A stretch of DNA of 55,306 nt from a virus. Taxonomy: Duplodnaviria > Heunggongvirae > Uroviricota > Caudoviricetes. Under the pieces are notes generated by a model. It did no database searches. It was not told the DNA's origin and worked only from the letters and a program-made list of their open reading frames with translations. The translations under genes were made by a program, and so were the position numbers. The DNA lies in the IMG/VR virus record IMGVR_UViG_650377933_000002; one strand, 5' to 3'. Numbering within the stretch: position 1 is the stretch's first letter; each line of letters opens with the position of its first letter. Below are positions 26,365 through 52,664 of this stretch, in pieces.

Positions 26365-27676
26365 TCTCCCGCATATTGCCAGCATGGCCTTTAATGAGCC
26401 GCTGATGCTTGAACCCGCCTATGCGCGGGTTTTCTTTTGTGCGCTTGCAGGCCAGCTTGGGATCAGCCGCCTGACGGATGCGGTGTCCGGCGACAGCCTG
26501 ACTGCCCAGGAGGCACTCGCGACGCTGGCATTATCCGGTGATGATGACGGACCACGACAGGCCCGGAGTTATCAGGTCATGAACGGCATCGCCGTGCTGC
26601 CGGTGTCCGGCACGCTGGTCAGCCGGACGCGGGCGCTGCAGCCGTACTCGGGGATGACCGGTTACAACGGCATTATCGCCCGTCTGCAACAGGCTGCCAG
26701 CGACCCGATGGTGGACGGCATTCTGCTCGATATGGACACGCCAGGCGGAATGGTGGCGGGGGCATTTGACTGCGCTGACATCATCGCCCGTGTGCGTGAC
26801 ATAAAACCGGTATGGGCGCTGGCCAACGACATGAACTGCAGTGCAGGTCAGCTGCTTGCCAGTGCCGCCTCCCGGCGTCTGGTCACGCAGACCGCCCGGA
26901 CAGGCTCCATCGGCGTCATGATGGCTCACAGTAATTACGGTGCTGTCCTGGAGAAACAGGGTGTGGAAATCACGCTGATTTACAGCGGCAGCCATAAGGT
27001 GGATGGCAATCCCTACAGCCATCTTCCGGATGACGTCCGGGAGACACTGCAGTCCCGGATGGACGCAACCCGCCAGATGTTTGCGCAGAAGGTGTCGGCA
27101 TATACCGGCCTGTCTGTGCAGGCTGTGCTGGATACCGAGGCTGCAGTGTACAGCGGTCAGGAGGCCATTGATGCCGGACTGGCTGATGAACTTGTTAACA
27201 GCAGCGATGCGATCACCGTCATGCGTGATGCACTGGATGCACGTAAATCCCGTCTCTCAGGAGGGCGAATGACCAAAGAGACTCAATCAACAACTGTTTC
27301 AGCCACTGCTTCGCAGGCTGACATCACCACCGTGGAGCCTGCGAAGGAGGGCGAAAACGCCAGCGCGGCGCAGCCGGATGTGAACGCACAGATCACCGCA
27401 GCGGTTGCGGCAGAAAACAGCCGCATTATGGGGATCCTCAACTGTGAGGAGGCTCACGGACGCGAAGAACAGGCGCGCGTTCTGGCAGAAACCCCCGGAA
27501 TGACCGTGGAAACGGCCCGCCGCATTCTGGCCGCAGCACCACAGAGTGCACAGGCGCGCAGTGACACTGCGCTGGATCGTCTGATGCAGGGTGCACCGGC
27601 ACCGCTGGCTGCAGGTAACCTGGCATCTGATACCAATAAAGAATTACTTAATACACCTGAAGCTTTACCGGTATAA
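26345..27676 (+). CDS. C: prohead protease/scaffold C (with in-frame nested Nu3 scaffold)
   Basis: ORF 26198..27676; GTG at 26345 (VTAELRNLPHIASMAFNEPLMLEPAYARVFF..) matches the lambda C start and overlaps the B stop; ClpP/S49-like region present. Confidence 0.9.
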
Positions 27677-27685
27677 GAGGCAGTT

Positions 27686-28018
27686 ATGGCGACAAAAGAA
27701 GAGTTTAACCATTACCAGCCGCTGGGTAACAGTGATCCGGCTCATACAGCAATTGCGCCTGGCGGATTGAGTGCGAAAACGCCTGCAATGACCCCACTGA
27801 TGCTGGATGGCACTACCCGTAAGCTGGTTGTGTGGGATGGCACCACCGACGGTGCAGCCGTTGGCATTCTTGCGGTTGCTGCTGACCAGACCAGCACCAC
27901 ACTGACGTTCTACAAGTCCGGCTCGTTCCGTTATGAGGATGTGCTCTGGCCGGAGGCTGCCAGCGACGAGACGAAAAAACGGACCGCGTTTGCCGGAACG
28001 GCAATCAGCATCGTTTAA
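27686..28018 (+). CDS. D: head decoration protein D
   Basis: 110-aa ORF matching lambda gpD (..[30 protein letters not shown]...[64 protein letters not shown]). Confidence 0.9.
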
Positions 28019-28037
28019 TCTTCCCCTTCATCAACAA

Positions 28038-28060
28038 AGGCCGCCTGTGCGGCTTTTTTT
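28038..28060 (+). terminator. short hairpin plus T7 run between D and E (weak terminator-like element)
   Basis: GCCGC CTGT GCGGC followed by TTTTTTT; the stem is only 5 bp, so function is doubtful. Confidence 0.3.
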
Positions 28061-28073
28061 ATGGAAATAATTT

Positions 28074-28349
28074 ATGTCTGTATATACAACTGCAGAATTA
28101 CTGGCATCGACCCAGCATCACTTTAAGTTCGATCCGCTGTTTCTGCGCCTGTTTTTCCGTGAAACCTATCCTTTCACCACGGAAAAAGTCTATCTCTCAC
28201 AAATTCCGGGACTGGTAAACATGGCGCTGTACGTTTCGCCGATTGTTTCCGGTGAGGTTATCCGATCCCGTGGCGGCTCCACCTCTGAATTTACGCCGGG
28301 TTATGTCAAACCCAAGCACTTAGCATGGCTTTCTGAGGCTTTCGTGTAG
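28074..28349 (+). pseudogene. E: major capsid protein E, 5' fragment (interrupted by insertion)
   Basis: First 82 codons match lambda E (MS.YTTA.LLA.....FKFDPLFLRLFFRE.YPFTTEKVYLSQIPGLVNMALYVSPIVSGEVIRSRGGSTSEFTPGYVKPKH), then 9 unrelated codons and a stop; the remainder of E resumes at 39388. Confidence 0.9.
28309..28318. repeat. left copy of 10-bp direct repeat AACCCAAGCA (candidate att core)
   Basis: Identical 10-mer at both E/insert junctions (28309..28318 and 39386..39395). Confidence 0.65.
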
Positions 28350-28481
28350 TTGCTGGTTTTTACACTTAATCTTTTGATAATAAAGAATAAGTTTATCTGG
28401 CGCTTTCACTGAATTTTCCTCGTTATCTGTGTGTTGCAATCATCTCTGTATTGCAGCTTGTATTGCTTTTTGGGGCTAAAA

Positions 28482-29717
28482 ATGGCTGGCGAGAACAAAC
28501 TGAGCGACAAAGCGCTTAAAGGATATCTGGGGAAACCCAGAGAAAAGCAGATCACCATTGCTGATGGAAAGGGGCTTTCTATTCGTGTGAGTACTAAAGG
28601 GGCTGTGAGCTTTGTTTTCTTCTACAGGTTAGCAGGTGGCCGGGATGCTCCGGTCTGGCTAACGTTGGGTAAATATCCTGATATGTCACTCAAACAGGCA
28701 AGGGAAAAGCGCGACGAGTGCCGTGGTTGGTTGGCTGACAAACGTGATCCGCGTATCCAGATTAAGATTCAGGCTGAAGAACGCTTAAAGCCGGTCACAG
28801 TGGAGGATGCACTAAATTACTGGTATGAAAATTACTGTAAGGTGCGTCGTAAAACTCATGCTGTAACGCTTGGCAGATTTCGAAAGCATATCTTTCCCTA
28901 TATCGGTCATTTGCCCGTAAATGACACTCACCTATATGAATGGCTGGACTGTTTTGACCGAATTAAACGTAATGCACCAGTTATGGCGGCGTATGTTTTT
29001 TCTGACACTAAATTAGCTCTTCGTTTTTGTCGGGTACGCCAGTACGCGACGTGTGATGCTTTAAAGGATTTGCGCATGAGTGATGTGGGGCAGATTGCAG
29101 GTAAGCGGGATCGGGTTCTGGATGAAGCCGAACTGGGCCAGCTCTGGAAGGCAATTTTTGTCGAGCCTGATTTAAAACTAATGTCTGAATACACGCGAAA
29201 AATGTTTGTGCTTTGTACAGTATTTGGATGTCGAATGAGTGAAGCCCGATTATCTGAATGGAGCGAATGGGATCTCGAAAGTTGGGTTTGGACTGTACCA
29301 AAAGATCACTCAAAAACTGGTGTTGAAATCGTCAGACCAGTACCTGAAATTCTACGACAGTGGGTAACGGATGTTCACGAAGAGACAAAACATACTGGTT
29401 ATGTGCTGGGAAGTCTGCGAATTAGAGAAAGCGTAAGCAAGATTGGGGGGAAAATCGGTAAACGTTTGGGCCATGAAAAACAATGGTCACTACACGACCT
29501 TAGAAGAACGCTATCTACTCATCTAAGTGATCTCGGTGTTGAATTTTATGTAGTAGAACAACTGTTAGGCCATGCGCTACCTGGCGTGGCAGGTGTTTAC
29601 AACCGGAGTAAGTTTATGGCTAAAAAACTGGATGCTCTGGAACTCTGGACTACATATCTCAATAGCATCGCAGGTGCTGATTCAAAAGTGACAATCCTCA
29701 AACAAAAGGCTGGTTAA
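28482..29717 (+). CDS. int: P4-type tyrosine integrase of the inserted element
   Basis: ORF 28431..29717; plausible ATG at 28482 (MAGENKLSDKALKGYLGKP..); C-terminal catalytic region (..WSLHDLRRTLSTHLSDLGV....LLGHALPGVAGVYNRS..). Confidence 0.85.
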   Translation: MAGENKLSDKALKGYLGKPREKQITIADGKGLSIRVSTKGAVSFVFFYRLAGGRDAPVWLTLGKYPDMSLKQAREKRDECRGWLADKRDPRIQIKIQAEERLKPVTVEDALNYWYENYCKVRRKTHAVTLGRFRKHIFPYIGHLPVNDTHLYEWLDCFDRIKRNAPVMAAYVFSDTKLALRFCRVRQYATCDALKDLRMSDVGQIAGKRDRVLDEAELGQLWKAIFVEPDLKLMSEYTRKMFVLCTVFGCRMSEARLSEWSEWDLESWVWTVPKDHSKTGVEIVRPVPEILRQWVTDVHEETKHTGYVLGSLRIRESVSKIGGKIGKRLGHEKQWSLHDLRRTLSTHLSDLGVEFYVVEQLLGHALPGVAGVYNRSKFMAKKLDALELWTTYLNSIAGADSKVTILKQKAG

Positions 29718-29718
29718 C

Positions 29719-29946
29719 ATGAAAAAAATGGCAATTGTTGATAAAAAGGGTCTGGAGTACATTCCTAACATCGATCGTATGATCCGTGAGAAAGAATGTC
29801 GGGAGCTAACCACTCTTGCAAACAGCACACGCTGGAAGCTGGAGAAGGAAGGAAAATTTCCTAAGCGGATCAAGATTGGTTCCACTGCTGTTGCATATCG
29901 TCTTTCAGAAGTGCAGGCATGGATTCGAGGTGAGTGGGTAGTTTAA
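29719..29946 (+). CDS. alpA: AlpA-family transcriptional regulator/excisionase
   Basis: 75-aa ORF 1 nt after the int stop, with AlpA-like HTH (..RELTTLANSTRWKLEKEGKFPKRIKIGSTAVAYRLSEVQAWI..). Confidence 0.8.
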   Translation: MKKMAIVDKKGLEYIPNIDRMIREKECRELTTLANSTRWKLEKEGKFPKRIKIGSTAVAYRLSEVQAWIRGEWVV

Positions 29947-30015
29947 ATTATCTCAGAATAAAATATTATGAATTACTGATTTGAGAATTTGTACTCAAAT
30001 CAGTAATAACATTCT

Positions 30016-30552
30016 TTATAAGAGATTAAATCCAAATAAAGAGTAATCATATACCGGGGTGCATTGCATCCCACTGAATATGCTGATGTTTTTTTCTGTT
30101 TCTATCCTTTTTTCAATAAGTTGTTGTATATTTTTACAGTACAATTTGTGTGTGATGTTATTATCGTAAGCCTGATATAGCAACGTCAATGTTGACGCTA
30201 GGAAACATACAGATAAAATTAAAATAATATATGCAGTTTTTTTATTTTTTGTCCATGATCTATTTGTTTGTGAAATATAAAGAATTCTGAGGTGGATAAT
30301 GGTGAGAGACAATAGCAGGCCACTCAATAAAATAAGTATTGGGTTTGCGTATTTTATTAATGGTTGAGAGCAAAAAACTATTATAGCTCCTGTGACTGCG
30401 TATGAGAAAAAGGAGTGATTAAACTTCTTACTCCTTCTCTCAAGTATTTTAATTTCATCTTGCGTGGGGGTTTTAGATGCCTCTAATATAAGTTTATTGA
30501 ATTTTTCTGTTATCTTGTTTTTTGTGTTTGTGGCTATTTTTTTTAGATTCAT
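30016..30552 (-). CDS. hypothetical membrane protein (AT-rich accessory gene)
   Basis: 178-aa ORF in a very AT-rich segment; at least three hydrophobic helices (..VTGAIIVFCSQPLI..ILILLSGLLLSLTIIHL..AYIILILSVCFLASTLTLLY..). Confidence 0.45.
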   Translation of the reverse strand: MNLKKIATNTKNKITEKFNKLILEASKTPTQDEIKILERRSKKFNHSFFSYAVTGAIIVFCSQPLIKYANPILILLSGLLLSLTIIHLRILYISQTNRSWTKNKKTAYIILILSVCFLASTLTLLYQAYDNNITHKLYCKNIQQLIEKRIETEKNISIFSGMQCTPVYDYSLFGFNLL

Positions 30553-30902
30553 AGCATTCTAACTCCCTTAACTTATTTATTACTTTCTCTTTATGATAAG
30601 AGAGGGGAATGACTTGGTAAAGTGATTTGTCATTAATAATGATAATCCTTGCGATAAATATTTCTGCAAGTTATTTATCTGTTTGTTGCTATCTTGTTAA
30701 GCGTTGGGTGTGGTTTATGTTTGGAGTGACTTTATTTAATCGTGATTTTATGGATTTATATTTATATCCTGTAAGATAAGCGCATGTTAGTTCAGGAGTA
30801 GTGTCAGATAAAATTATTCGGAGTAGAACTACCTTTTCTGTTTATTGCCAGTATTTACATAGCAATGCGCCGTAGTTACTCACATCACGGCGCTGATACT
30901 AA

Positions 30903-31205
30903 TTATTCAGATTCTTTGGCTTTACGCCGCTGGAGTTCTTCACGAGCGACGGCTACGAGTTGCCCGATTTCCTCCGCTACCTTGATGCCGATTTGTTCGA
31001 CCTTAGCTAAGGCATCCAGTGAAGACACGAGGGGATTTTCTCCGCTTCCTTCTGCCTGGCGGCGGGCGATCTCACCGCGCATGGCGGTTACTATGAATCC
31101 GGCGTTGCTTTCGCCGTCCAGTTTTACGGATTCCATGCCCTCCATAACATCGTGGGGAACCCTGATCGTTGTCATTTGCGATTTTGCATTTTTGTATACA
31201 GACAT
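30903..31205 (-). CDS. putative transcriptional regulator of the element
   Basis: 100-aa ORF divergent from the replication operon and separated from it by an operator-like repeat region; charged coiled-coil-like C-terminus; function inferred from position only. Confidence 0.4.
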   Translation of the reverse strand: MSVYKNAKSQMTTIRVPHDVMEGMESVKLDGESNAGFIVTAMRGEIARRQAEGSGENPLVSSLDALAKVEQIGIKVAEEIGQLVAVAREELQRRKAKESE

Positions 31206-31413
31206 AGTTAATCACCAATTTGTTATGTGTATATCACTATACACAAAAGTGAGATATAAAAACACTTGCAATGTATATCACCACAATATAATGTATATCT
31301 CACATTATGGTCGCTATGTATCTCACAATGATCGATTCATAAAAACGACGAAACCCGGCAGTGCGCGAACACTAACCGGGCTTCTAACCAAACCGTTAAA
31401 CGAGGTAACGACT
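31206..31413. promoter_or_regulatory. divergent promoter region with repeated TGTATATC(A/T)CA operator-like motifs
   Basis: Four or more copies/inverted copies of GTGTATATCAC, GTGAGATATA, TGTATATCACC, TGTATATCTCACA, TGTATCTCACA within about 110 bp. Confidence 0.5.
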
Positions 31414-31704
31414 ATGGCTGGAACACAGCATACCCAAACTCACCCTAAATTTATATACATCTTTCTGGCGCTACATCGCGATCGCATAGCAGATGGAGCA
31501 ACTACGGTACATGTAGCCGCTGACACGCTGTTTATTCAGAAATGTGAAAACAATTTCATCTGGCGTTTTATCGCCCTGAGTACGGCACAACCGCGCGTGA
31601 TTACCATCGAGGCCACCAGCGAACAGGAAGCCCGCCAGCAATCCCCAACTGGCTGCGTGATGATATTCGCCGCCCGTATTCGTCAGGAGGTGTGCCATGA
31701 ATGA
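31414..31704 (+). CDS. hypothetical protein (first gene of the rightward operon)
   Basis: ORF 30865..31704 is long only because of an upstream GC-rich read-through; ATG at 31414 with GAGG RBS gives 96 aa; stop overlaps the next start. Confidence 0.4.
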   Translation: MAGTQHTQTHPKFIYIFLALHRDRIADGATTVHVAADTLFIQKCENNFIWRFIALSTAQPRVITIEATSEQEARQQSPTGCVMIFAARIRQEVCHE

Positions 31705-31921
31705 TCTTTATTTTAAAGTGCTGACACATGCTGAAAACGCGCTCGTTTGTGGCAAAAATATGCGAGAAATCTTATCAACCTGGCTTGATGGGACAACAAA
31801 TGCGGAACACGATGAACGGGATGCTAATTTAGCTGGAGCGTTAATTACGTTACTTGATCCTGTCATCAAAGAGCTGGATGAAGCTATAAAAATACACGAC
31901 CAGAGCTATACCGGAGAATAA
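31697..31921 (+). CDS. hypothetical protein
   Basis: 74-aa ORF, start overlapping the previous stop (translational coupling). Confidence 0.4.
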   Translation: MNDLYFKVLTHAENALVCGKNMREILSTWLDGTTNAEHDERDANLAGALITLLDPVIKELDEAIKIHDQSYTGE

Positions 31922-31923
31922 AA

Positions 31924-32211
31924 ATGAAAAATAAATTTTCTGGCTTTATTGCCAGCGGTCAAACTCATTCAAAAATCAGCCTTGGGGATATTTTCAAAGA
32001 TAGCTATGGCTATCGAGTAAAGATTATTTCGGTTGATGATCGCCGTGTCTCTTATTTGCGTGATGGTTATGATTTTGAATGTGTTATGCCGCGTCAGCAG
32101 TTCGAAAGAGATTTCATTCTGGTAAAAAATTGCAAGACAGATAATCAGAGGCGTTCCGCAGGCTATATCCGCAAAATTCGGGCAATGTTAGTTGCCGGAG
32201 GTAACAAATGA
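31924..32211 (+). CDS. hypothetical protein
   Basis: 95-aa ORF; stop overlaps the primase start. Confidence 0.4.
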   Translation: MKNKFSGFIASGQTHSKISLGDIFKDSYGYRVKIISVDDRRVSYLRDGYDFECVMPRQQFERDFILVKNCKTDNQRRSAGYIRKIRAMLVAGGNK

Positions 32212-34028
32212 AACGTGCTCCGAACTTAAAATACCAACCGCGCGACAAAATGACAGAAGTCATCATTTTTGCTGGCAGTGATGCCTGGAGCCATGCAAAA
32301 GAATGGAATGAATGGGCGGGTAAGCATATTGCAGCAGATGATACACCACCAGTCATTCTGGGTACGGAACAACTGGAAAACCTGGATGATATGCAAATTA
32401 TCGATGAAGGCCGTCATTATGTGCGTGTTTATCGTGCCGGAAAGATCGCAGAGAAAAATCTGACGAAGGTTGCGACATTACTTGCTATTGCAGGCGTAAA
32501 GGAAGCACGTTGTTACCGTAGCTTTGTTGATCGAGAGCCTGAAGACTGGACTCCGCGCCTTGTCGGCCTAAAAGCTGAAGCGGAGCATGGGGAAAGTCTG
32601 GTGATTGAACTGCCAGTGAAGAAGGCAGAGCGCAAAAATGACGAGCGTGCTTCATCTTTGGCGTTGAATCAGATGGGGGCCAGCCAGCGCGGTGAAGTTC
32701 TCCTGGCACATTACGGCGGCGAACTGGCAATCAATGCCGACTCTGACACCGTTCATCATTACAACGGCGTTGTATGGGAGCCGGTTCAGGATAAAGAGTT
32801 ACAGCGTGCTATGGCGCAGATTTTCATTGATGCGGAGATCAGCTATTCGCAGAACGCCATTAAATCGGCGGTAGATACCATGAAGTTAAGTTTGCCTGTA
32901 ATGGGGAATACAGCCCGTAACCTGATTGGATTCAGTAACGGGGTATTTGATACCAGAACTGGTAATTTTCGGGAGCATAACAAAAACGACTGGTTGTTAA
33001 TTGCCAGTGAATTACCTTTCAGCCCACCAGCAGAGGGGGAAACGCTGGCAACACATGCGCCGAATTTCTGGAAGTGGTTGCGCCGTTCGGTGGCTGAGAA
33101 TGACCGCAAGGCAGATCGCGTACTGGCGGCATTATTCATGGTGCTGGCGAACCGGTACGACTGGCAGTTATTCATTGAGGTAACAGGGCCGGGGGGAAGT
33201 GGTAAAAGTGTGATGGCGGAGATTTGCACCATGCTGGCGGGTAAGGCTAATACAGTATCAGCAAGCATGAAGGCGCTGGAAGATGCAAGGGAACGTGCGT
33301 TAGTGGTTGGCTTTTCGCTGATTATCATGCCGGATATGACCCGCTACGCTGGTGATGGGGCAGGGATTAAGGCCATTACAGGCGGTGACAAGGTGGCAAT
33401 TGACCCGAAACACAAAGCCCCCTATTCAACGCGTATTCCGGCAGTAGTGCTGGCGGTTAACAATAACGCCATGTCATTCAGTGACCGCAGCGGGGGGATC
33501 TCACGTCGTCGGGTGATATTCAATTTTTCGGAAGTTGTACCGGAGAACGAACGCGATTCGATGCTGGCGGAAAAAATAGAAGGTGAGCTGGCGGTAGTGA
33601 TTCGCCATCTGCTTACACGGTTTGCTGATCAGGACGAAGCCAGACGCCTGTTATATGAGCAGCAGAAATCTGAAGAAGCACTGGCGATAAAGCGAGAGGG
33701 GGATTCGCTGGTGGACTTCTGCGGCTATCTCATGGCATCGGTAATGTGTGATGGCCTGTTAGTGGGTAATGCTGAAATTGTGCCATTCAGCCCACGCAGG
33801 TATCTCTATCATGCCTATCTGGCTTATATGAGGGCACATGGGTTTGGTAAACCTGTAACACTGACGCGCTTCGGTAAAGATATGCCGGGGGCAATGGCGG
33901 AATATGGCAGGGAGTATATGAAACGGAAAACGAAGCACGGTTTGCGTTCAAACGTGACACTGACGGAGGAATCAGAAGACTGGATGCCATCATGTGTATC
34001 GGTCACTAATGACGATAGCAAAAATTAA
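32208..34028 (+). CDS. primase/helicase (P4-alpha-like, SF3-type P-loop NTPase)
   Basis: 606-aa ORF with GGAGG RBS; Walker A VTGPGGSGKS and downstream Walker B-like acidic stretch (LIIMPDMT); followed by an iteron array. Confidence 0.8.
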   Translation: MKRAPNLKYQPRDKMTEVIIFAGSDAWSHAKEWNEWAGKHIAADDTPPVILGTEQLENLDDMQIIDEGRHYVRVYRAGKIAEKNLTKVATLLAIAGVKEARCYRSFVDREPEDWTPRLVGLKAEAEHGESLVIELPVKKAERKNDERASSLALNQMGASQRGEVLLAHYGGELAINADSDTVHHYNGVVWEPVQDKELQRAMAQIFIDAEISYSQNAIKSAVDTMKLSLPVMGNTARNLIGFSNGVFDTRTGNFREHNKNDWLLIASELPFSPPAEGETLATHAPNFWKWLRRSVAENDRKADRVLAALFMVLANRYDWQLFIEVTGPGGSGKSVMAEICTMLAGKANTVSASMKALEDARERALVVGFSLIIMPDMTRYAGDGAGIKAITGGDKVAIDPKHKAPYSTRIPAVVLAVNNNAMSFSDRSGGISRRRVIFNFSEVVPENERDSMLAEKIEGELAVVIRHLLTRFADQDEARRLLYEQQKSEEALAIKREGDSLVDFCGYLMASVMCDGLLVGNAEIVPFSPRRYLYHAYLAYMRAHGFGKPVTLTRFGKDMPGAMAEYGREYMKRKTKHGLRSNVTLTEESEDWMPSCVSVTNDDSKN

Positions 34029-34039
34029 ACTTATGGAAT

Positions 34040-34275
34040 AACTGTTCACCACTGTTCACCCTGTCATAAATATCTTTTATATCAGTATATTATAGGGTGA
34101 ACAGTTATTTATGAACTGTTCACCAAACTATTCACTGTTCACCTTTTTGATTGTTTATTGAGCTTCAAGGGTGAACAGTAGTGAACAGTTGGTGAATAGT
34201 TTTTGTGAAACTGTTCACCCATTAACATTATGAATTAAAAGAGAAAATATCAAAAGGTGAACAGGTGAAGGGTTA
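34040..34275. repeat. iteron array (about 9 copies of CTGTTCACC in both orientations), candidate replication origin of the element
   Basis: ACTGTTCACC at 34041 and 34051, GGGTGAACAGTT at 34095, AACTGTTCACC at 34114, CACTGTTCACC at 34133, GGGTGAACAGTAGTGAACAGTTGGTGAATAG at 34169..34199, CTGTTCACCC at 34211, GGTGAACAGGTGAAG at 34257. Confidence 0.75.
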
Positions 34276-34315
34276 AAACGCAAAAATTTTAATTTACTGC
34301 TGTGAGATAAAGCCT

Positions 34316-34561
34316 ATGACAGCGAAGCACACAAAAAAATCACAATCGCACGCCCTTGATTTGACGGAACACTGGTTAAGGGTGTCGATAAAAATCATCG
34401 ACCGCAACGCCGGGGAAGGATACGCGAAAGCACATCCCGAACTGATTAGCGCATTCATGACAACGGCGGCTGCAAACTTTGCCACTCTGACCGAACGGGA
34501 GATTGCTGAAGCGGAGGAAGTGACAACAATCAATATTAAGTCCGGAGAGCAGGCAGCATGA
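34316..34561 (+). CDS. hypothetical protein
   Basis: 81-aa ORF; stop overlaps the start of the downstream SSB-like gene (ATGA). Confidence 0.4.
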   Translation: MTAKHTKKSQSHALDLTEHWLRVSIKIIDRNAGEGYAKAHPELISAFMTTAAANFATLTEREIAEAEEVTTINIKSGEQAA

Positions 34562-35007
34562 CGGCGCAAATATCAGTTTACGGGCGGTTGGTGGACGACC
34601 CGCAGACAAAACAGACCAGCAAGGGCACCCCCATGACGCTGGCGCGTATGGCGTTATCACTGCCCTGCAGTCAGTCGGATGACGGTCAGGCGACGATGTG
34701 GTTATCTGTCCTGGCGTTTGGCAGACAAGCCGACGCGCTGGCAAAGCATCACAAAGGCGAACTCCTGAGCGTGGCGGGTAATATGCAGGTGAGCCAGTGG
34801 ACTGGACAGAACGGTGAAACGCGGCAGGGCTGGCAGGTTATCGCAGACAGCGTAATCAGTGCGCGAACGGTGCGACCGGGCGGCAAAAAAGGTCAACAGG
34901 GTCAGGCTACTGACGCACTGAACAGAGCAAAACAACAGGCAGATCAGCAAGGAAGCCATCCACCAGTGGGAGATAATGAACAATGGGGAGATGATATTCC
35001 GTTTTAA
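34558..35007 (+). CDS. SSB-like single-stranded DNA-binding protein
   Basis: 149-aa ORF ending in the canonical SSB acidic tail ..DDIPF preceded by a Gly/Gln-rich linker. Confidence 0.7.
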   Translation: MTAQISVYGRLVDDPQTKQTSKGTPMTLARMALSLPCSQSDDGQATMWLSVLAFGRQADALAKHHKGELLSVAGNMQVSQWTGQNGETRQGWQVIADSVISARTVRPGGKKGQQGQATDALNRAKQQADQQGSHPPVGDNEQWGDDIPF

Positions 35008-35224
35008 ATATTGCCAATAAAAAAGGCCGGAAAAAAATAAATTTTCCGGCATGCTACATAAATCCCGACCAAAGGGAGTGAAGATATTAACACTAATTAT
35101 CCGCGCTGAAGTTGTTATCCCAAAACTTTATACAACATTGCACTCGGTTGCATGTATTCGCATGACAAATATCGGTGATAGCATATATCCACAATTATTT
35201 TTAATGAATGCAAAGAGGATGCGT

Positions 35225-36265
35225 ATGGTTGATTTATATTCGCCTACCCAGCTTGTACAGGTGGTTAATGCTGTAGATGTACAAAAACAACTAAATGCGT
35301 TGTTTACCAGTTTGTTTTTTACTCGCTCGGTAATGTTTGAATCGCGCGATATTATTCTTGATACAATCGACGATCCAAATATCCCAATTGCAGCGTTTTG
35401 TTCTCCTATGGTGGGTAGTAAAGTTTCACGTGACGAAGGGTACGAATCAAAAACAATTCGTCCAGGCTATATGAAGCCGAAAAGCAGCATTGATCCAAAT
35501 AAGTTAGCTGTGCGCCCTGCTGGTGTATCACCTGAGCAATACAATGCTTTTGGAGCGCGTAATATTAAAGTTAAACAGGCGATTGTAAATCAGGCTAAAG
35601 CTATTCGTGCACGTATTGAATGGCTTGCCGTTCAGGCAATCACAACGGGGAAAAATATCATTGAGGGCGATGGTATTGAACGTTATGAGCTGGACTGGAA
35701 TATTAAACCACAAAATATCATCACTCAGTCTGGCGGTGCTGAGTGGTCAGGTAAGGATAAAGAAACTTTTGATCCAAATGATGATATTGAGAGCTACGCA
35801 GAATTTAGTGAGGGCGTCACTAATATCATCATTATGGGCGGTAATGTATGGAAGAAATACCGTTCATTCAGAGCGATAAAAGAGGCTCTGGATACCCGTC
35901 GTGGTTCTAATTCCGAACTGGAAACGGCTCTTAAAGACCTTGGTGATTCGGTGAGTTTTAAAGGGTATATGGGCGATGTTGCGATTGTTGTATACAGCGG
36001 GCGTTATACCGACGAGGACGGAACTGAAAAACATTTCCTTGATCCTGATTTGATGGTGCTTGGCAATACGGCTCTTCAGGGGATTGTCGCCTATGGCGGT
36101 ATTCAGGATCCGGAGCTAATCCGAATGGGGCTGACTAAAGCCGAACTTGCACCGAAAAACTATATTGTGCCTGGTGATCCGGCTATTGAATATGTGCAGA
36201 CACATTCAGCACCACAGCCAATACCGGCCCGCATCAATCGTTTTGTTACCGTTCGCATTGGCTAA
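35225..36265 (+). CDS. lambda E-like major capsid protein encoded by the inserted element
   Basis: ORF 35051..36265; ATG at 35225 with AAGAGG RBS gives 346 aa; clear homology to lambda E (RPGYMKPKSSIDP / ITQSGGAEWSGKDKETFDPNDDIESYAE / DTRRGSNSELETALKDLGDSVSFKGYMGDVAIVVYSGRY versus lambda TPGYVKPKHEVNP / ITQSGGTEWSKRDKSTYDPTDDIEAYAL / DTRRGSNSELETAVKDLGKAVSYKGMYGDVAIVVYSGQY). Confidence 0.8.
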   Translation: MVDLYSPTQLVQVVNAVDVQKQLNALFTSLFFTRSVMFESRDIILDTIDDPNIPIAAFCSPMVGSKVSRDEGYESKTIRPGYMKPKSSIDPNKLAVRPAGVSPEQYNAFGARNIKVKQAIVNQAKAIRARIEWLAVQAITTGKNIIEGDGIERYELDWNIKPQNIITQSGGAEWSGKDKETFDPNDDIESYAEFSEGVTNIIIMGGNVWKKYRSFRAIKEALDTRRGSNSELETALKDLGDSVSFKGYMGDVAIVVYSGRYTDEDGTEKHFLDPDLMVLGNTALQGIVAYGGIQDPELIRMGLTKAELAPKNYIVPGDPAIEYVQTHSAPQPIPARINRFVTVRIG

Positions 36266-36274
36266 GGGGGAGCA

Positions 36275-36616
36275 ATGGCTACTCATTACACTGAACTCAT
36301 GGCTGGCACTGAAGCACTGGTGACTACGCTGGGGATATTTTCAGCTAATAAAGGGGTAATTCCTGCATTTACGCCACTGATGCAGGAAGATGCAACAGGT
36401 GCACTGGTGGTATGGGATGGTTCGAGCGTAGGTAAAGCGGTTTATGTTTCCGCTGTACAAATCGACACCGCGAAAAAAACACAGGCTCAGGTCTATAAGA
36501 CAGGTGTCTTAAATGTTGATGCTCTGAACTGGCCTGAGTCTGTAAAAGAACTGTCAGTAAAGATTGCAGCGTTTGTTGGCTCAGGTATTTCTGTTCAGCC
36601 GCTGGCTCGTGTGTAA
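36275..36616 (+). CDS. D-like head decoration protein encoded by the inserted element
   Basis: 113-aa ORF directly after the E-like gene; weaker similarity to lambda D (..ALVVWDGSSVGKAVYVSAV.. / ..AAFVGSGISV.. versus ..[19 protein letters not shown].. / ..[11 protein letters not shown]). Confidence 0.55.
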   Translation: MATHYTELMAGTEALVTTLGIFSANKGVIPAFTPLMQEDATGALVVWDGSSVGKAVYVSAVQIDTAKKTQAQVYKTGVLNVDALNWPESVKELSVKIAAFVGSGISVQPLARV

Positions 36617-36627
36617 AGGGGGATACA

Positions 36628-37011
36628 ATGCAGAATGATTACAATGACCTTAAGCCAATTGCCGAAATGATGTACCCGAATCCAGCTGTAGAGGAATTAA
36701 AAGCTATCGCTGACAAAATGTGTTTAAGCGAGCGCCTTGTTGATATGAATCAGGTGATGGAAATTACAACCCTGAGTCGGCGTACACTGCTAAACCTTGA
36801 GGCTAGTGGAGAGTTCCCGGAGCGTGTGCAGGTTACGGAAGGGCGTAAGGCCTGGTATTTAAGTGAAGTGATCGACTGGATAAATAATATTCCTCGCGCT
36901 TCTGAATATTGCCGCGTACCTGTCCCAAAAAAGCCAGATGCGGCGCTATGCCTCAAGATTGAGCGTGTACGCCGCAATGCACGGGATGGTCGCTATAAGC
37001 TGATTGGTTGA
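36628..37011 (+). CDS. AlpA-like HTH DNA-binding protein directly upstream of the element cos site
   Basis: 127-aa ORF; central AlpA-like motif (..MNQVMEITTLSRRTLLNLEASGEFPERVQVTEGRKAWYLSEVIDWI..). Confidence 0.5.
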   Translation: MQNDYNDLKPIAEMMYPNPAVEELKAIADKMCLSERLVDMNQVMEITTLSRRTLLNLEASGEFPERVQVTEGRKAWYLSEVIDWINNIPRASEYCRVPVPKKPDAALCLKIERVRRNARDGRYKLIG

Positions 37012-37019
37012 TGAAATTA

Positions 37020-37256
37020 GGGCCCGCTCTGGCTGGCGGGTCCTTTCCGGCGATCTGACAGGCTACGGGGCGTCAGGCGCGCAGTTTTTCTCTATTTATG
37101 GAAATTTTCCGGTTTAAGGCATTTCCGTTCTTCTTCGCCGTAACTTTATGTTTTTATTTAAAATACCCCCTGAAAAGAAAGGAAATGACAGGCGCTGAAA
37201 ACGGGCATTTTGGCCTCTGTCGTTTCCTTTCTCTGTTTTTGTCCGTGGAATGAACA
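37020..37256 (+). other. second cos-like site carried by the inserted element (divergent cosN, conserved cosB)
   Basis: About 215 bp homologous to the phage cos/Nu1 leader at 21901..22117; cosB side nearly identical (..TATTTATG.AAATTTTCCGGTTTAAGGC.TTTCCGTTCTTCTTCGCCGTAAC..GAAAAGAAAGGAAA.GACAGG.GCTGAAAACGGGC.TTTT.GCCTCTGTCGTTTCCTTTCTCTGTTTTTGTCCGTGGAATGAACAATG) but the cosN segment differs (ACGGGGCGTCAGGCGCGCAG versus ACGGGGCGGCGACCTCGCGG). Confidence 0.8.
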
Positions 37257-37451
37257 ATGGAAGTCAACAAAGATCAACTGGCTGACATTTTGGGCAAGAG
37301 TTGTGCAATACTTTTGTCAGACGTAAATATTTTTGAGGAACATTATTATATTGATGTAATTAGAGATATGTTTGATAGGACTAGAAATAAAGCAGACGCC
37401 TTAGTTATGTCAATTGCTGAAATAATAAAGGAAAATAGCAATGATAAATAG
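37257..37451 (+). pseudogene. Nu1 5' remnant fused to unrelated AT-rich sequence
   Basis: First about 12 codons resemble Nu1 (MEVNKDQLADILG versus MEVNKKQLADIFG) then diverge into AT-rich sequence; 64-codon ORF ends at a convergent terminator. Confidence 0.5.
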
Positions 37452-37453
37452 AA

Positions 37454-37477
37454 AAAAGCGGTCACGCGACCGCTTTT
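37454..37477. terminator. bidirectional intrinsic terminator between convergent genes
   Basis: AAAAGCGGTC ACG CGACCGCTTTT palindromic hairpin flanked by A-run and T-run. Confidence 0.65.
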
Positions 37478-37514
37478 ATTATTTGCAAGTTATTTTTTTG
37501 CTGGAGATAAACTA

Positions 37515-38063
37515 TTACTGTTCACCAATTTGCTCTCTAAACTGTGTACTGAACGTATCTAGTTGAGAGACAAATGAATGTGCATTTAAAAATTTATTAT
37601 AAATCTCTTCAGCTGTGCTTTCTAATACAAAAGTAGCATAATTATTATGTGCTAATTTATTTCTTAGCTCTCCGATTTCCATAAAATCAGAGATAGACTT
37701 GGTCAACTCTGTGCTTGATTTTACCTTCTCAATCATAAACTCTTTAAATTTTGGGCCAAAAAAGGAAAAAAACTGGTTTGCATTCCTTTTTTTCCAATCA
37801 AAGAGTGTATGATACTGCCTGGTTAGGGCCTTATTATCGATAAAATCGTGTGTAAGATTACATTGGCTTGGGTTAAGCATACAATGTATCTTAGTTACAA
37901 CTAAAGTTTCAAAATAGCTAGCACATGCTAATAGCATTACTTTTGAAAATTGTGATTTGTAATCATTAGCAAAACTAATCTCATTATGAGTTAGAAGAAA
38001 ATCATAATAACACTTATAGTTATTAAACATACTTTCAATAGAAGTATATCCCATATCCTCCAT
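37515..38063 (-). CDS. HEPN-like protein (Rx4H motif), downstream gene of the DUF262 operon
   Basis: ORF 37515..38096 (GTG); ATG at 38063 lies 4 nt after the upstream stop; C-terminal ..EIGELRNKLAHNNY.. fits the HEPN Rx4-6H motif; strongly AT-rich. Confidence 0.5.
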   Translation of the reverse strand: MEDMGYTSIESMFNNYKCYYDFLLTHNEISFANDYKSQFSKVMLLACASYFETLVVTKIHCMLNPSQCNLTHDFIDNKALTRQYHTLFDWKKRNANQFFSFFGPKFKEFMIEKVKSSTELTKSISDFMEIGELRNKLAHNNYATFVLESTAEEIYNKFLNAHSFVSQLDTFSTQFREQIGEQ

Positions 38064-38067
38064 TATT

Positions 38068-39231
38068 TTACATTCCCTCCAAAATTGTTCTTGCACGTTC
38101 TAGACGTCCAATTACATGCTCTCTTCTTGTTGTTTTATCAGTACTAAATGTCAGAAATTCAGGATCATTTTTAAGCTTATCGATGTAATTCACCGTCACT
38201 TGTCTTATTTTTAGATCTTTATCTTTAAATGAGTCATAAGTTGCAGCATAAAAAATTGACTCAAATAAAGTTATACTCATACGATTCCCACCAGTTCTGA
38301 AATTGATTTCATCAATTCCATCAACACTATCCATAAATTCATTCCATATATTACTAAATAAAGTTATGTCTTTAGTGTCGTAGTTTTTTGCATAATTTGA
38401 GAAATTGTTCAAAAAACCGCTAACTGAGCTTTTGTATTGAGATGTAAAAAGGGACATAGCAAATGTGCGCAATATCGCTTCAATATCACTCAATCGCATG
38501 TCAACAACATTTTTTGAAAGAATTTTTCTCCATGTCTTGTTTTCATTCAATGAAACAAGATTTGAAAGAAAGTCTGAGTGATATAAACTCATACGAATTT
38601 CTTGAGGAGAAAGGTTCATTCCCCCACTATTTAGGCGGTTAAATATTTCAAACATTGCACCATCTTCCGAATCTTGTGCAACCGGTTTGATTACCATATT
38701 TCGTATGGTTGCCAGATTTAAAGTGGTTTGAAATTCGTTTAATGTTTCATAGTTTTTCCCATTAAACTTGTTTTTTTGGGTGTCTGATAGACCATCAAGT
38801 TTTAGGTTGAACTTTGTGAAGTATTCATCATTGTGAAGAATGTTTTCTGGAATGTTTCCATTATCTTCAAAGATTTTTCTCAGTTCAGAACGTTTCTCTT
38901 TTCTAGGGAATACACCATTTACAAAGTAATAAAGGGTCATTAATCTCTGCTGACCATCTATCACTAAAAATTCATTTTTATCTTGTTCATATAAAAATAT
39001 TTGAGGTATAGGAAGGCCTATTAAAAGAGATTCAATGAGTTTTGATGCTCGTTTGATATCCCAAACATAATGCCTTTGAAAGTTAGGGATTTTAAAAACT
39101 TTTGATTTAATAAAACTTATAATTGTGATTATATTAAAATCATTGGGCGTAGTAGTAAGTTGAAACTCATCAATTGGATAGGATTCTGGCTCATCCTCGT
39201 ATTGCTTTTCTTCATAATCTTCTGGTTGCAT
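38068..39231 (-). CDS. DUF262 (ParB-like nuclease/NTPase superfamily) protein
   Basis: ORF 38068..39279 (GTG); ATG at 39231 (MQPEDYEE..) preceded by AAGGA; hallmark DUF262 motif ..FLVIDGQQRLMTLYYF..; strongly AT-rich. Confidence 0.7.
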   Translation of the reverse strand: MQPEDYEEKQYEDEPESYPIDEFQLTTTPNDFNIITIISFIKSKVFKIPNFQRHYVWDIKRASKLIESLLIGLPIPQIFLYEQDKNEFLVIDGQQRLMTLYYFVNGVFPRKEKRSELRKIFEDNGNIPENILHNDEYFTKFNLKLDGLSDTQKNKFNGKNYETLNEFQTTLNLATIRNMVIKPVAQDSEDGAMFEIFNRLNSGGMNLSPQEIRMSLYHSDFLSNLVSLNENKTWRKILSKNVVDMRLSDIEAILRTFAMSLFTSQYKSSVSGFLNNFSNYAKNYDTKDITLFSNIWNEFMDSVDGIDEINFRTGGNRMSITLFESIFYAATYDSFKDKDLKIRQVTVNYIDKLKNDPEFLTFSTDKTTRREHVIGRLERARTILEGM

Positions 39232-39385
39232 CGTGTCATCCTTTTTCTTCGTGAATATGGTTTTTAGACAAGTCCTCACTACACATATCTGTATTGCAGA
39301 AAGTATTGCAGTGATAGGAGTTGCGTAGATATATAAACCACAAAGCTAAGTGAAATCAAATAGTTCTTTCGGGATTGACTCATGT

Positions 39386-39395
39386 AACCCAAGCA
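39386..39395. repeat. right copy of 10-bp direct repeat AACCCAAGCA (candidate att core)
   Basis: Identical to 28309..28318; immediately followed by the in-frame continuation of E. Confidence 0.65.
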
Positions 39396-40176
39396 TGAGG
39401 TGAATCCGCAGATGACCCTGCGTCGCCTGCCGGATGAAGATCCGCAGAACCTGGCTGACCCGGCTTACCGTCGTCGCCGTATTATTCGGCAGAATATGCT
39501 GGATGAAAATCTGGCGATTGCCCAGGTCGAAGAGATGCAGGCAGTTTCTGCCGTGCTTAAGGGCAAATATACCATGACCGGTGAAGCCTTCGATCCGGTT
39601 GAGGTGGATATGGGCCGCAGTGAGGCGAATAACATCACGCAGTCCGGCGGCACGGAGTGGAGCAAGCGTGACAAGTCCACGTATGACCCGACCGACGATA
39701 TCGAAGCCTACGCGCTGAACGCCAGCGGTGTGGTGAATATCATCGTGTTTGATCCGAAAGGCTGGGCGCTGTTCCGTTCCTTCAAAGCCGTCAAGGAGAA
39801 GCTGGATACCCGTCGCGGCTCTCATTCCGAGCTGGAGACAGCGGTAAAAGACCTGGGCAAAGCGGTGTCTTATAAGGGAATGTATGGCGATGTGGCCATC
39901 GTCGTGTATTCCGGACAGTACGTGGAAAACGGCGTCAAAAAGAACTTCCTGCCGGACAACACGATGGTGCTGGGGAACACTCAGGCACGCGGTCTGCGCA
40001 CCTATGGTTGCATTCAGGATGCGGACGCACAGCGCGAAGGCATTAACGCCTCTGCCCGTTACCCGAAAAACTGGGTGACCACCGGCGACCCGGCGCGTGA
40101 GTTCACCATGATTCAGTCAGCACCGCTGATGCTGCTGGCTGACCCTGATGAGTTCGTGTCTGTACAACTGGCGTAA
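39388..40176 (+). pseudogene. E: major capsid protein E, 3' fragment (codons 80-341)
   Basis: In-frame from CCC AAG CAT GAG GTG AAT CCG CAG (PKHEVNPQMTLRRLPDEDPQNLADPAYRRRRII..SVQLA), matching the lambda E C-terminal 259 aa; joined to 28074..28319 it gives a full 341-aa E. Confidence 0.9.
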
Positions 40177-40217
40177 TCATGGCCCTTCGGGGCCATTGTT
40201 TCTCTGTGGAGGAGTCC

Positions 40218-40613
40218 ATGACGAAAGATGAACTGATTGCCCGTCTCCGCTCGCTGGGTGAACAACTGAACCGTGATATCAGCCTGACGGGGACGAAAGA
40301 AGAACTGGCGCTCCGTGTGGCAGAACTGGAAGAAGAGCTTGATGACACGGGCGACACTGCCGGTCAGGATATCCCTCTCAGCCCGGAAAATGTGCTGACC
40401 GGACATGAAAATGAGGTTGTATCAGCGCAGCCGGATACCGTGACTGATACGGCTGATCTGGTCACGGTTGTGGCACTGGTGACGCTGCATACTGATGCAC
40501 TTCACGCCACGCGGGATGAGGCTGTGGCATTTGTGCTGCCGGGAACGGCGTTCCGTGTCTCTGCCGGTGTGGCAGCTGAAATGACAGAGCGCGGCCTGGC
40601 CAGAATACAATAA
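40218..40613 (+). CDS. FI: DNA packaging protein FI
   Basis: ORF 40179..40613; ATG at 40218 (MTKDELIARLRSLGEQLNRD.SLTGTKEELALRVAEL..) matches lambda FI. Confidence 0.9.
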   Translation: MTKDELIARLRSLGEQLNRDISLTGTKEELALRVAELEEELDDTGDTAGQDIPLSPENVLTGHENEVVSAQPDTVTDTADLVTVVALVTLHTDALHATRDEAVAFVLPGTAFRVSAGVAAEMTERGLARIQ

Positions 40614-40624
40614 CGGGAGGCGCT

Positions 40625-40978
40625 GTGGCTGATTTCGATAACCTGTTCGATGCTGCCATTGCCTGCGCCGATGAAACGATACACGGGTACATGGGAACGT
40701 CAGCCACCATGACATCCGGTGAGCAGTCCGGTGCTGTGATACGTGGTGTTTTTGATGACCCTGAAAATATCAGCTATGCCGGACAGGGCGTGCGCGTTGA
40801 AGGCTCCAGCCCGTCCCTGTTTGTCCGGACTGATGATGTGCGGCAGCTGCGGCGCGGCGACACGCTGACCATCGGTGAGGAAAACTTCTGGATAGACCGG
40901 ATTTCGCCGGATGATGGCGGAAGCTGTCATCTCTGGCTTGGGCGGGGCGTACCGCCTGCCGTTAACCGTCGCCGCTGA
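40625..40978 (+). CDS. FII: head-tail connector FII
   Basis: 117-aa ORF matching lambda FII (MADFDNLFDAAIA.ADETI.GYMG..). Confidence 0.9.
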   Translation: MADFDNLFDAAIACADETIHGYMGTSATMTSGEQSGAVIRGVFDDPENISYAGQGVRVEGSSPSLFVRTDDVRQLRRGDTLTIGEENFWIDRISPDDGGSCHLWLGRGVPPAVNRRR

Positions 40979-40989
40979 AAGGGGGATGT

Positions 40990-41568
40990 ATGGCCATAAA
41001 AGGTCTTGAGCAGGCCGTTGAAAACCTCAGCCGTATCAGCAGAACGGCGGTGCCCGGTGCCGCCGCAATGGCCATTAACCGCGTTGCTTCATCCGCGATA
41101 TCGCAGTCGGTGGCACAGGTTGCCCGTGAGACAAAGGTACGCCGGAAACTGGTAAAGGAAAGGGCCAGGCTGAAAAGGGCCACAGTCAAAAATCCGCAGG
41201 CCAGAATCAAAGTTAACCGGGGGGATTTGCCCGTAATCAGGCTGGGTAACGCGCGGGTTGTCCTGTCCCGACGCAGGCGTCGTAAAAAGGGGCAGCGTTC
41301 ATCCCTGAAAGGTGGCGGCAGCGTGCTTGTGGTGGGAAACCGTCGTATTCCCGGCGCGTTTATTCAGCAACTGAAAAATGGCCGCTGGCATGTCATGCAG
41401 CGTGTGGCCGGGAAAAACCGTTACCCCATTGATGTGGTGAAAATTCCGATGGCGGTGCCGCTGACCACGGCGTTTAAACAGAATATTGAGCGGATACGGC
41501 GTGAGCGTCTTCCGAAAGAGCTGGGCTATGCGCTGCAGCATCAACTGAGGATGGTAATAAAGCGATGA
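40990..41568 (+). CDS. Z: tail completion protein Z
   Basis: 192-aa ORF matching lambda Z (MAIKGLEQAVENLSRIS.TAVPGAAAMAINRVASSAISQS..). Confidence 0.9.
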   Translation: MAIKGLEQAVENLSRISRTAVPGAAAMAINRVASSAISQSVAQVARETKVRRKLVKERARLKRATVKNPQARIKVNRGDLPVIRLGNARVVLSRRRRRKKGQRSSLKGGGSVLVVGNRRIPGAFIQQLKNGRWHVMQRVAGKNRYPIDVVKIPMAVPLTTAFKQNIERIRRERLPKELGYALQHQLRMVIKR

Positions 41569-41960: not shown

Positions 41961-41967
41961 GGACGAT

Positions 41968-42708: not shown

Positions 42709-42723
42709 TCCGGAGAGTCAGCG

Positions 42724-47140: not shown

Positions 47141-47144
47141 TCCC

Positions 47145-52655: not shown

Positions 52656-52664
52656 GGGGTGAAT

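Follow-up and report, generated by a model that had tools for sequence, protein, structure and literature searches.

The 11-kb insert in the major capsid gene of a lambda-like Escherichia coli prophage is very probably the helper-embedded satellite Eco567.11capE

Satellite P4 integrates into a tRNA gene, and both it and its helper P2 have a 19-nt cos. In active lysogeny, or phage regulatory switches (e.g., phi10403S in Listeria comK), an interrupted gene is made whole again at a defined time when the integrated element reversibly excises. Among Gram-negative cos PICIs the model is EcCICFT073 (Fillol-Salom et al. 2018, ISME J; 2019, Mol Cell), with a canonical cosN and a foreign cosB read via Rpp-TerS heterodimers; it is chromosomal (in locus L044 the late genes adjoin phoQ), and its interactions with the helper are all in trans. 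Capsid-forming PICIs (cf-PICIs) carry the full set of head and packaging genes, including one for their own major capsid protein (Alqurainy et al. 2023). Closest to the locus described here is Eco567.11capE (11capE) of E. coli NRG857c, the founding or type helper-embedded PICI (HE-PICI) (Tommasini, Mageeney & Williams, NAR Genom Bioinform 2023;5:lqad036; PMC10111431).

The window (the whole stretch of DNA analyzed, 55,306 bp) comes from E. coli O83:H1 NRG 857C and is identical to NC_017634.1 (100% over 11,087 bp). Between helper genes D and FI it contains an insert that breaks the lambda-type major capsid gene E after codon 82 (..GYVKPKH, 28319), with int, alpA, and pri on the late-operon strand. 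The pieces of E and the junctions are as follows.

28074-28319, plus strand: 5′ fragment of helper E, codons 1-82 (RefSeq pseudogene "major capsid protein, missing C-terminus")
28309-28318, plus strand: attL core AACCCAAGCA, a 10-bp repeat matching the published core
39386-39395, plus strand: attR core AACCCAAGCA, a 10-bp repeat matching the published core
39388-40176, plus strand: 3′ fragment of helper E, codons 80-341 and stop, the frame resuming at PKHEVNPQMTLRRL..

In the integrated state the 5′ fragment reads on into a stop codon at 28347-28349. Joined (28074-28319 with 39397-40176), the two pieces give 1026 nt that translate into exactly the 341-aa E expected, plus stop. The core AACCCAAGCA occurs only twice in the window, both strands considered (at 28309 and 39386); the bases flanking the two copies differ, which fixes the repeat at exactly 10 bp and the insert at 11,077 bp. 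Recomputation from the sequence agrees with the original prediction on the split after codon 82, the repeat at both junctions, and the length of the insert.

Our analysis supports, with a probability of about 95%, the identification of the insert as Eco567.11capE, a Gram-negative PICI of the helper-embedded type within the lambda-like prophage 50icd (at icd). The supplementary entry for that element (Eco567.11.E_Phage_cap_E_80; CP001855.1/1199333-1210409; identity block aacccaagca; marked "original") (Tommasini et al. 2023) can be compared directly, and the published coordinates, identity block, and attL/attR sequences all agree with the window. Strain, 10-bp core, a 258-bp cos homology of 90%, and a doubled TGTATTGC motif are likewise the same, and there is no difference in identity. 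The HE-PICI-specific attP arm carries two co-oriented doubled TGTATTGC motifs, ~81 bp upstream and ~132 bp downstream of the attP center (PMC10111431); their spacing in the insert agrees with these distances.

28445-28467, plus strand: doubled TGTATTGC motif, copy ctcTGTATTGCagctTGTATTGC, beginning ~131-132 bp after the att center
39288-39311, plus strand: doubled TGTATTGC motif, second copy atcTGTATTGCagaaaGTATTGCa, ending ~80-81 bp before the att center

Membership in the HE-PICI integrase clade follows from identity with the founding sequence (coordinates and att) and rests on that match rather than on a new tree. The insert in the capsid gene was already known and has been correctly rediscovered rather than newly found; the statement that no described satellite family targets a helper capsid gene was wrong, HE-PICI Eco567.11capE having been published in 2023. 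The reading of the insert as a phage satellite with its attachment site inside E stands, since the sequence and the published same-strain experiments agree, and the anatomy of 11capE had been rebuilt correctly from sequence alone. Checking keeps an already described insert from being carried on as a discovery; added to the published account are the count of attL junctions (173/5,426), the isogenic empty site in LF82, and the clustering of cos mismatches in cosN. As biology this is striking, for a virus has its own parasite lodged in its capsid gene and cannot form heads until the parasite leaves.

An uninterrupted E with the same core, the comparison proposed with the original prediction, is present in LF82 and many other genomes, so that the precise att identity block and intact attB in related prophages that mark HE-PICIs are both found. 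In the sister strain LF82 the same prophage has E as an intact 341-aa gene, the difference being exactly the 11,077-bp insert. Alignment to the window is collinear, at 99.9% for window 8019-28318 and 99.5% for 39386-55306, and the two aligned blocks overlap in LF82 by exactly the 10-bp core; LF82 is a natural, isogenic empty site for the insert. The joined intact E has a 100% identical match across the junction in many other genomes. Searching 5,426 complete E. coli genomes for the attL junction gave 173 that have it, and 30 genomes contain 80% or more of the element. Flanks were read in three (NRG 857C, 22KM0354, and 1218KP), and each time the element is bordered by an E piece on either side; in 1218KP, IS3 has degraded the prophage around it, and the satellite itself carries an IS5. 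No supporting evidence was found for the idea that the junctions are an assembly chimera with no real element within E, and it has next to no chance of being correct: the attL junction recurs in 173 independently assembled complete genomes, the element sits between the E pieces wherever flanks were read, the LF82 site is cleanly and exactly empty, and the formation of attB and attP upon induction is seen in published deep-sequencing data (PMC10111431). An assembly artifact was rejected on the recurrence of the junction and the clean LF82 site.

The gene order is that of a Gram-negative PICI: int-alpA at one end, a variable zone, pri followed by the iterons of a putative ori, and a late zone of capsid genes plus cos. 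The element is mostly unidirectional and, at 11,077 bp, falls within 10-20 kb. Its features are listed below.

28482-29717, plus strand: satellite tyrosine integrase, 411 aa (Pfam Arm-DNA-bind_3 and Phage_integrase)
29719-29946, plus strand: AlpA, 75 aa (Pfam)
30016-30552, minus strand: hypothetical 178-aa protein in an AT-rich stretch, no family match above any curated cut-off
30903-31205, minus strand: YlcI/YnfO-family protein (phrog_6522)
31414-31704, plus strand: Icd-like protein, also matching PHROG "transcriptional repressor" families
31697-32211, plus strand: two small genes, for a 74-aa hypothetical protein (phrog_2196) and a DUF4222 protein
32208-34028, plus strand: primase-helicase, 606 aa (Pfam D5_N, DUF5906, and Pox_D5)
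34040-34266, no strand assigned: putative ori immediately 3′ of pri, ~10 ACTGTTCACC / GGTGAACAGT iterons in both orientations
34316-35007, plus strand: 81-aa hypothetical protein (phrog_1231), then SSB (149 aa, by Pfam)
35225-36265, plus strand: satellite E-family major capsid protein, 346 aa (Pfam Phage_cap_E; 42% identity to helper E)
36275-36616, plus strand: satellite D-family head decoration protein, 113 aa (Pfam HDPD; 41% identity to helper D)
36628-37011, plus strand: second AlpA-family protein, 127 aa, just 5′ of the cos-like segment
37257-37451, plus strand: 64-aa ORF whose first 13-15 codons are the Nu1 N-terminus (terS remnant)
37454-37477: bidirectional hairpin, 3′ of the 64-aa ORF
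37515-38063, minus strand: AT-rich cargo, HEPN protein of RiboL-PSP type
38068-39231, minus strand: AT-rich cargo, DUF262/GmrSD_N protein

None of the int, alpA, pri, SSB, and capsid reading frames is disrupted. Pfam matches bear out the predicted integrase, AlpA, primase-helicase, SSB, and capsid homologs; the iteron origin (about ten ACTGTTCACC copies at 34040-34266) and the AT-rich cargo (31% GC at 37500-39000 versus 56-59% in the helper head genes) were also correctly called. At the position equivalent to the att core, the satellite E-like gene reads AGCCGAAAAG, not AACCCAAGCA. The cargo pair matches PADLOC models NsnA and PD-T4-2_A/B and is predicted to be defense-like. Rfam was scanned over 27500-40500 for RNAs of any kind, P4-like immunity RNAs included, and no match reached a gathering score. 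Neither a Pfam scan of 17 ORFs nor the annotation revealed terminase, portal, tail, or lysis genes in the insert; the lack of its own terminase, tail, and lysis genes, combined with a helper-related cos (the 258-bp homology), is a further Gram-negative PICI trait. EcCICFT073 shares the int-alpA, pri-ori, E-like, D-like, and cos organization, the 10-20 kb size class, and lambda-like helpers; it differs in being chromosomal, whereas 11capE lies inside its helper.

The label "P4/PICI-like" holds for a Gram-negative PICI with P4-type integrase and primase, but must be narrowed to the helper-embedded type, as no P4 capsid-size or regulatory protein is matched in Pfam. Assigning the element to the P4-family satellites or the cf-PICIs in place of the classical Gram-negative PICIs is very improbable, even with its P4-type integrase arm domain, D5-like primase-helicase, and own major capsid and decoration genes. 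Like P4, 11capE is small and is predicted to depend on helper structural genes; however, none of the 17 ORFs scanned matches a P4 capsid-size or regulatory family (Psu, Sid, Delta, and Ash), the cos is of the 12-nt lambda type and not P2-type, and the element sits in a helper gene. Like cf-PICIs it encodes a major capsid protein, but it has only the E-like and D-like genes in place of a complete head module and terminase small subunit; lacking its own genes for portal, protease, head-tail connector, or terminase, it would be unable to build capsids independently as cf-PICIs do.

The cos regions of helper and satellite can be compared within the window.

21898-22155, plus strand: helper cos region, with canonical lambda cosN GGGCGGCGACCT at 21929-21940, cosB, and a Nu1-like terS start at 22118
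37037-37294, plus strand: satellite cos-like segment, 258 bp, 90% identical to helper cos, with cosN GGGCGTCAGGCG at 37068-37079

The predicted "cos copy" lacks the helper 12-nt cosN. In the satellite cosB, R3 (bp 55-63) and R1 match the helper base for base and R2 is one base off; the mismatches cluster in cosN, where 6 of 12 overhang positions differ. EcCICFT073 shows the reverse, and the Rpp-type subgroup that it represents was rejected, given the helper-like cosB, the variant cosN, and no Rpp homolog among the three small post-ori proteins tested: PDB sequence searches with the second AlpA-family, 81-aa, and 64-aa proteins listed no Rpp entry, the first matching an AlpA structure and the other two having no match below E = 0.1.

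A native origin of the variant cosN in some sequenced phage was also rejected: no match in INPHARED exceeds 89.5% over 76 nt, and the 37 IMG/VR contigs with the variant 20-mer show it in a satellite setting, never adjoining a large terminase gene. The satellite capsid-decoration-AlpA module is found just upstream of it in 35 of these contigs; of the other two, that of L009 contains the module, and the upstream stretch in L038 is too short to judge. The second AlpA-family gene is directly 5′ of the cos-like segment in 36 of the 37 relatives, the exception being L038, which starts only ~100 bp upstream of the cosN match. The variant is not a fixed family trait, since among 80 loci sampled by the neighboring AlpA-family gene, cosN is variant in 48, canonical in 29, and of other types in 2 (one locus is without an anchor). 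In satellites sharing at least 95% identity in the adjacent AlpA-family gene, GGGCGTCAGGCG alternates with GGGCGGCGACCT and two rarer alleles. It is conceivable, if doubtful, that 11capE-type satellites package in the opposite way to EcCICFT073 with its Rpp, keeping the helper cosB for direct TerS binding while using GGGCGTCAGGCG as a private 12-nt cohesive end. If helper terminase cuts the variant cosN, satellite ends could not anneal to helper ends and the genomes would be kept separate; if it does not, the satellites would be stranded or in need of another helper.

Mitomycin C treatment of NRG857c leads to precise excision of 11capE, detected by qPCR and by deep sequencing with attB and attP reads; excision is first seen at 2 h, after the composite prophage has excised and replicated, and reaches 42-98% of excised composites (PMC10111431). 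These reads, from the same strain, confirm the expectation that precise excision restores E. For 11capE and 50icd, neither virions nor plaques nor transfer were detected after induction (PMC10111431), so helper dependence, packaging, and horizontal transfer are what we infer. The missing phage and satellite particles, a helper side tail fiber gene truncated in NRG857c and LF82 alike, and the IS3-degraded prophage and IS5-bearing satellite of 1218KP could all suit a dead, immobile island in a decaying prophage, with no working satellite-helper cycle. Such an island is improbable, given the intact int, alpA, pri, SSB, and capsid frames, the precise, temporally ordered, and efficient excision, and the occurrence of near-identical modules with different cargo, primases, and even integrase, which indicates ongoing mobility and recombination.

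Active lysogeny of the phi10403S kind interrupts a host gene, whereas 11capE interrupts a gene of another mobile element, its helper phage. The insertion might still be mainly a host- or prophage-serving switch ("regulated gene integrity") that throttles helper virions, not a self-transmitting parasite: E is not expressible before excision, excision lags replication (PMC10111431), and defense-like cargo could benefit the host. We consider this unlikely as the main role, because the element's own replication module, cos-like site, and PICI-organized integrase clade point to selection on its transfer, and the regulation has been argued to serve the satellite (Tommasini et al. 2023; PMC10111431). 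The switch is compatible with the HE-PICI explanation.

In the HE-PICI cycle that we propose, the tyrosine integrase recombined the 10-bp attP core with the identical core at E codons 79-82 of 50icd, and the helper is unable to make major capsid protein while the satellite is integrated. Upon SOS induction the whole 61-kb composite excises and replicates first, the satellite being copied passively, after which the satellite excises precisely, restoring E and forming an 11-kb circle (steps experimentally shown in the literature). The circle may then replicate from its own pri and iteron ori, and concatemers may be packaged by helper terminase, with helper TerS recognizing the helper-type cosB; particles would use helper heads and tails, possibly joined by the satellite E-like and D-like proteins. 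New integration would need a recipient that already has a prophage bearing this E core. Packaging and transfer of 11capE, and the roles of its E-like and D-like proteins and variant cosN, are worth experiments.

Excision would be timed by Q-antiterminated helper late transcription that crosses D and the E stub and enters int and alpA. Because int, alpA, and pri are co-oriented with the helper late operon, such read-through is plausible, and it was also proposed by Tommasini et al. 2023 (PMC10111431). Scans for promoters and terminators gave counts not above those in shuffled sequence and are uninformative about read-through. Between D and E, a terminator-like hairpin followed by a T-run can be read at ~28040-28059; it should be irrelevant under Q antitermination.

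Gene E of the helper, the lambda-like prophage surrounding the insert, begins at 28074 and agrees with lambda E up to and including codon 82 (..GYVKPKH, to 28319), past which the frame enters unrelated sequence and reaches a stop at 28347-28349; in the window it picks up again at 39388 (PKHEVNPQMTLRRL..) and runs to 40176. Joined, the two pieces (E' and 'E) amount to 1026 nt and encode 341 aa followed by a stop. The sequence AACCCAAGCA has only two copies in the window, both strands counted, at 28309 and 39386; since the bases flanking them differ, the repeat has a length of exactly 10 bp and the insert one of 11,077 bp. Reading frames and repeat positions thus bear out the original prediction of an E gene broken after codon 82 and resuming in frame, 341 aa when rejoined, with the same 10-bp core at both junctions of an 11,077-bp insert.

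In RefSeq, a "major capsid protein" pseudogene half is annotated on either side of the insert, and both belong to a lambda-like operon that is complete for head and tail. The head genes run Nu1-like terS, terL, W, portal, S49 protease, D, and E', and the insert is followed by 'E, FI, FII, Z, U, V, G/T, H, M, L, K, I, J, lom, and a tail fibre gene that is truncated. Genes upstream of the head operon comprise int/xis, exo/bet/gam, repressor, O/P, Q (quuD), and those for lysis. The helper also carries DLP12-like accessory genes (10448-13955, 16465-17547, and 20065-20358) encoding EmrE, a recombinase (YbcK), an alpha/beta hydrolase, a porin resembling OmpC/NmpC, whose gene follows Q and precedes the lysis genes, and Iss/Bor. 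A GC-rich hairpin (GCCGCCTGTGCGGC) with seven T's after it is found on the coding strand at 28040-28059, downstream of D and ahead of E; it resembles a terminator within the late operon and lies shortly before the satellite.

In E. coli O83:H1 NRG 857C (NC_017634.1) the window spans 1171022-1226327, and the insert is identical over its full length to 1199330-1210416 of that genome. The prophage of a sister strain, LF82, is collinear with the window (99.9% for 8019-28318 and 99.5% for 39386-55306); the two blocks overlap by the 10-bp core and no more, and the E gene is whole, at 341 aa, the uninterrupted relative that had been proposed as a check. Many genomes match a 600-nt joined-E probe at 100% identity, and 3,098 of the 5,426 complete E. 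coli genomes cover 80% or more of it; in the same set, a 321-nt left-junction probe has at least 80% coverage in 173 genomes, and 30 contain 80% or more of the element as a whole, with differing cargo (TIR, Abi, DUF2971, and others). Given the LF82 empty site and this recurrence, the junctions are neither chance nor artefact, and chimeric assembly, named beforehand as a possible refutation, is ruled out.

The gene content of the insert is as predicted: integrase, AlpA, primase-helicase, iterons, SSB, capsid homologues, and AT-rich cargo.

Features of the insert
28482-29717, tyrosine integrase with P4-type arm domain
29719-29946, AlpA
after AlpA, AT-rich variable zone holding an Icd-like gene and two genes on the opposite strand
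between variable zone and primase-helicase, DUF4222 protein
32208-34028, D5-type primase-helicase
34040-34266, about ten iterons (ACTGTTCACC)
34558-35007, SSB
35225-36265, E-family capsid protein, 42% identical to helper E
36275-36616, D-family decoration protein, 41% identical to helper D
36628-37011, second AlpA-family protein
37037-37294, cos-like segment of 258 bp, 90% identical to helper 21898-22155
37257-37451, 64-aa ORF after cos, holding only the first 13-15 codons of Nu1
37515-39231, minus strand, DUF262/GmrSD_N and HEPN pair, 31% GC

PADLOC models match the last pair to NsnA (2e-59) and PD-T4-2_A/B. Annotation and family scans of the insert found no terminase, portal, protease, tail, or lysis genes, and the element cannot be an autonomous phage. 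At the position homologous to the att core, its own capsid gene reads AGCCGAAAAG; integration there is unlikely.

The original prediction knew of no satellite family targeting a helper capsid gene, which is wrong: the element is the already published Eco567.11capE (11capE) from E. coli NRG857c, founding element and type specimen of the helper-embedded PICIs (HE-PICIs) (Tommasini et al. 2023; PMC10111431). The supplementary table of that paper lists it as CP001855.1/1199333-1210409, with identity block aacccaagca and the flag "original," and attL and attR as printed agree with the window. After mitomycin C, attB and attP form precisely, as measured by qPCR and deep sequencing; the 61-kb composite of helper and satellite is excised at 1 h and 11capE only from 2 h, its excision reaching 42-98% of excised composites (PMC10111431). 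A doubled TGTATTGC motif, whose published distances from the centre of attP are 81 and 132 bp (PMC10111431), lies at 39290-39310 and 28445-28466, exactly as far away. The motif and the published record agree, and the proposal of a satellite that uses a site inside E for attachment and restores E on excision is therefore correct, though not new. 11capE has all HE-PICI and Gram-negative PICI features that can be tested in silico; tests for P4-like, cf-PICI, and Rpp-type membership exclude it from each.

Plaques were not detectable (PMC10111431). The helper side tail fibre gene (52665-54369) is annotated as truncated, lacking its C-terminus, in NRG857c and LF82 alike, which may or may not be linked to that failure.

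Three steps have been shown for 11capE (PMC10111431): insertion at a specific site, the 10-bp core; precise excision, which restores E; and the timing of this excision after the composite has replicated. Because int and alpA are co-oriented with the late operon, they may be driven by Q-antiterminated late transcription; that helper late transcription continues into the satellite is also the published authors' hypothesis (PMC10111431). The excised circle may replicate independently from pri and the iterons, and the helper terminase may package it. Such packaging is plausible since cosB of the satellite has hardly changed (R1 and R3 bp 55-63 the same as in the helper, one mismatch in R2); in lambda, TerS anchoring at cosB positions TerL for nicking (PMC9026076).

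The predicted cos copy stands as regards the 258-bp, 90% homology, which had already been reported (PMC10111431), but its 12-nt cosN differs from the helper's, a difference absent from the published description. Seven of the 25 mismatches fall within 21934-21946; the satellite has GGGCGTCAGGCG at 37068-37079, and the helper the canonical lambda GGGCGGCGACCT at 21929-21940. With mismatches so clustered, the satellite cohesive end would be GGGCGTCAGGCG, not GGGCGGCGACCT. The variant also occurs in two other E-site satellites, even with diverged cosB. All 37 IMG/VR contigs carrying it show satellite context; none has a large terminase gene beside it, 35 have the capsid-decoration-AlpA module just upstream, and four have a full Nu1-like terS (72% identical) after it. 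One locus, L009, is part of a contig where the module was found; another, L038, begins only about 100 bp upstream of the variant match, and its context is not readable. Among INPHARED phages, no match to the variant region is better than 89.5% over 76 nt. The variant is not a fixed trait: 80 loci sampled by a neighbouring AlpA-family gene at least 95% identical are polymorphic (48 variant, 29 canonical, two other, and one without anchor). Vahanian et al. 2017 (as cited in PMC9026076) catalogued the cosN variation that occurs naturally in lambda-like phages. The model PICI EcCICFT073, in contrast to 11capE, has canonical cosN at both its cos sites and a foreign cosB, read through Rpp, whereas cosB in 11capE is almost identical to the helper's; PDB sequence searches with three small post-ori 11capE proteins listed no Rpp entry.

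Between cos and attR lies a hotspot for cargo, holding DUF262/GmrSD_N and HEPN in 11capE and TIR, Abi, DUF2971, or other genes in sister elements otherwise about 99% identical (e.g., locus L002, 12377-13519). Four relatives (L008, L012, L034, and L037) have a full-length Nu1-like small terminase after cos, about 72% identical to the helper's; as only 13-15 Nu1 codons are retained in 11capE, it appears, from this comparison of sequences, to be a terS-deleted derivative. The late module (capsid-decoration-AlpA-cos, 98-100% identical) is joined to a different primase (about 47% identical) in L012, L017, L024, and others, and to a different integrase (53% identical) in L030; satellite zones thus shuffle as modules. 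In locus L003 (strain 1218KP), the prophage has decayed around a satellite that is now stranded: IS3 and unrelated genes replace the helper head genes upstream of D (1-3011), and an IS5 lies within the satellite itself (4962-5942).
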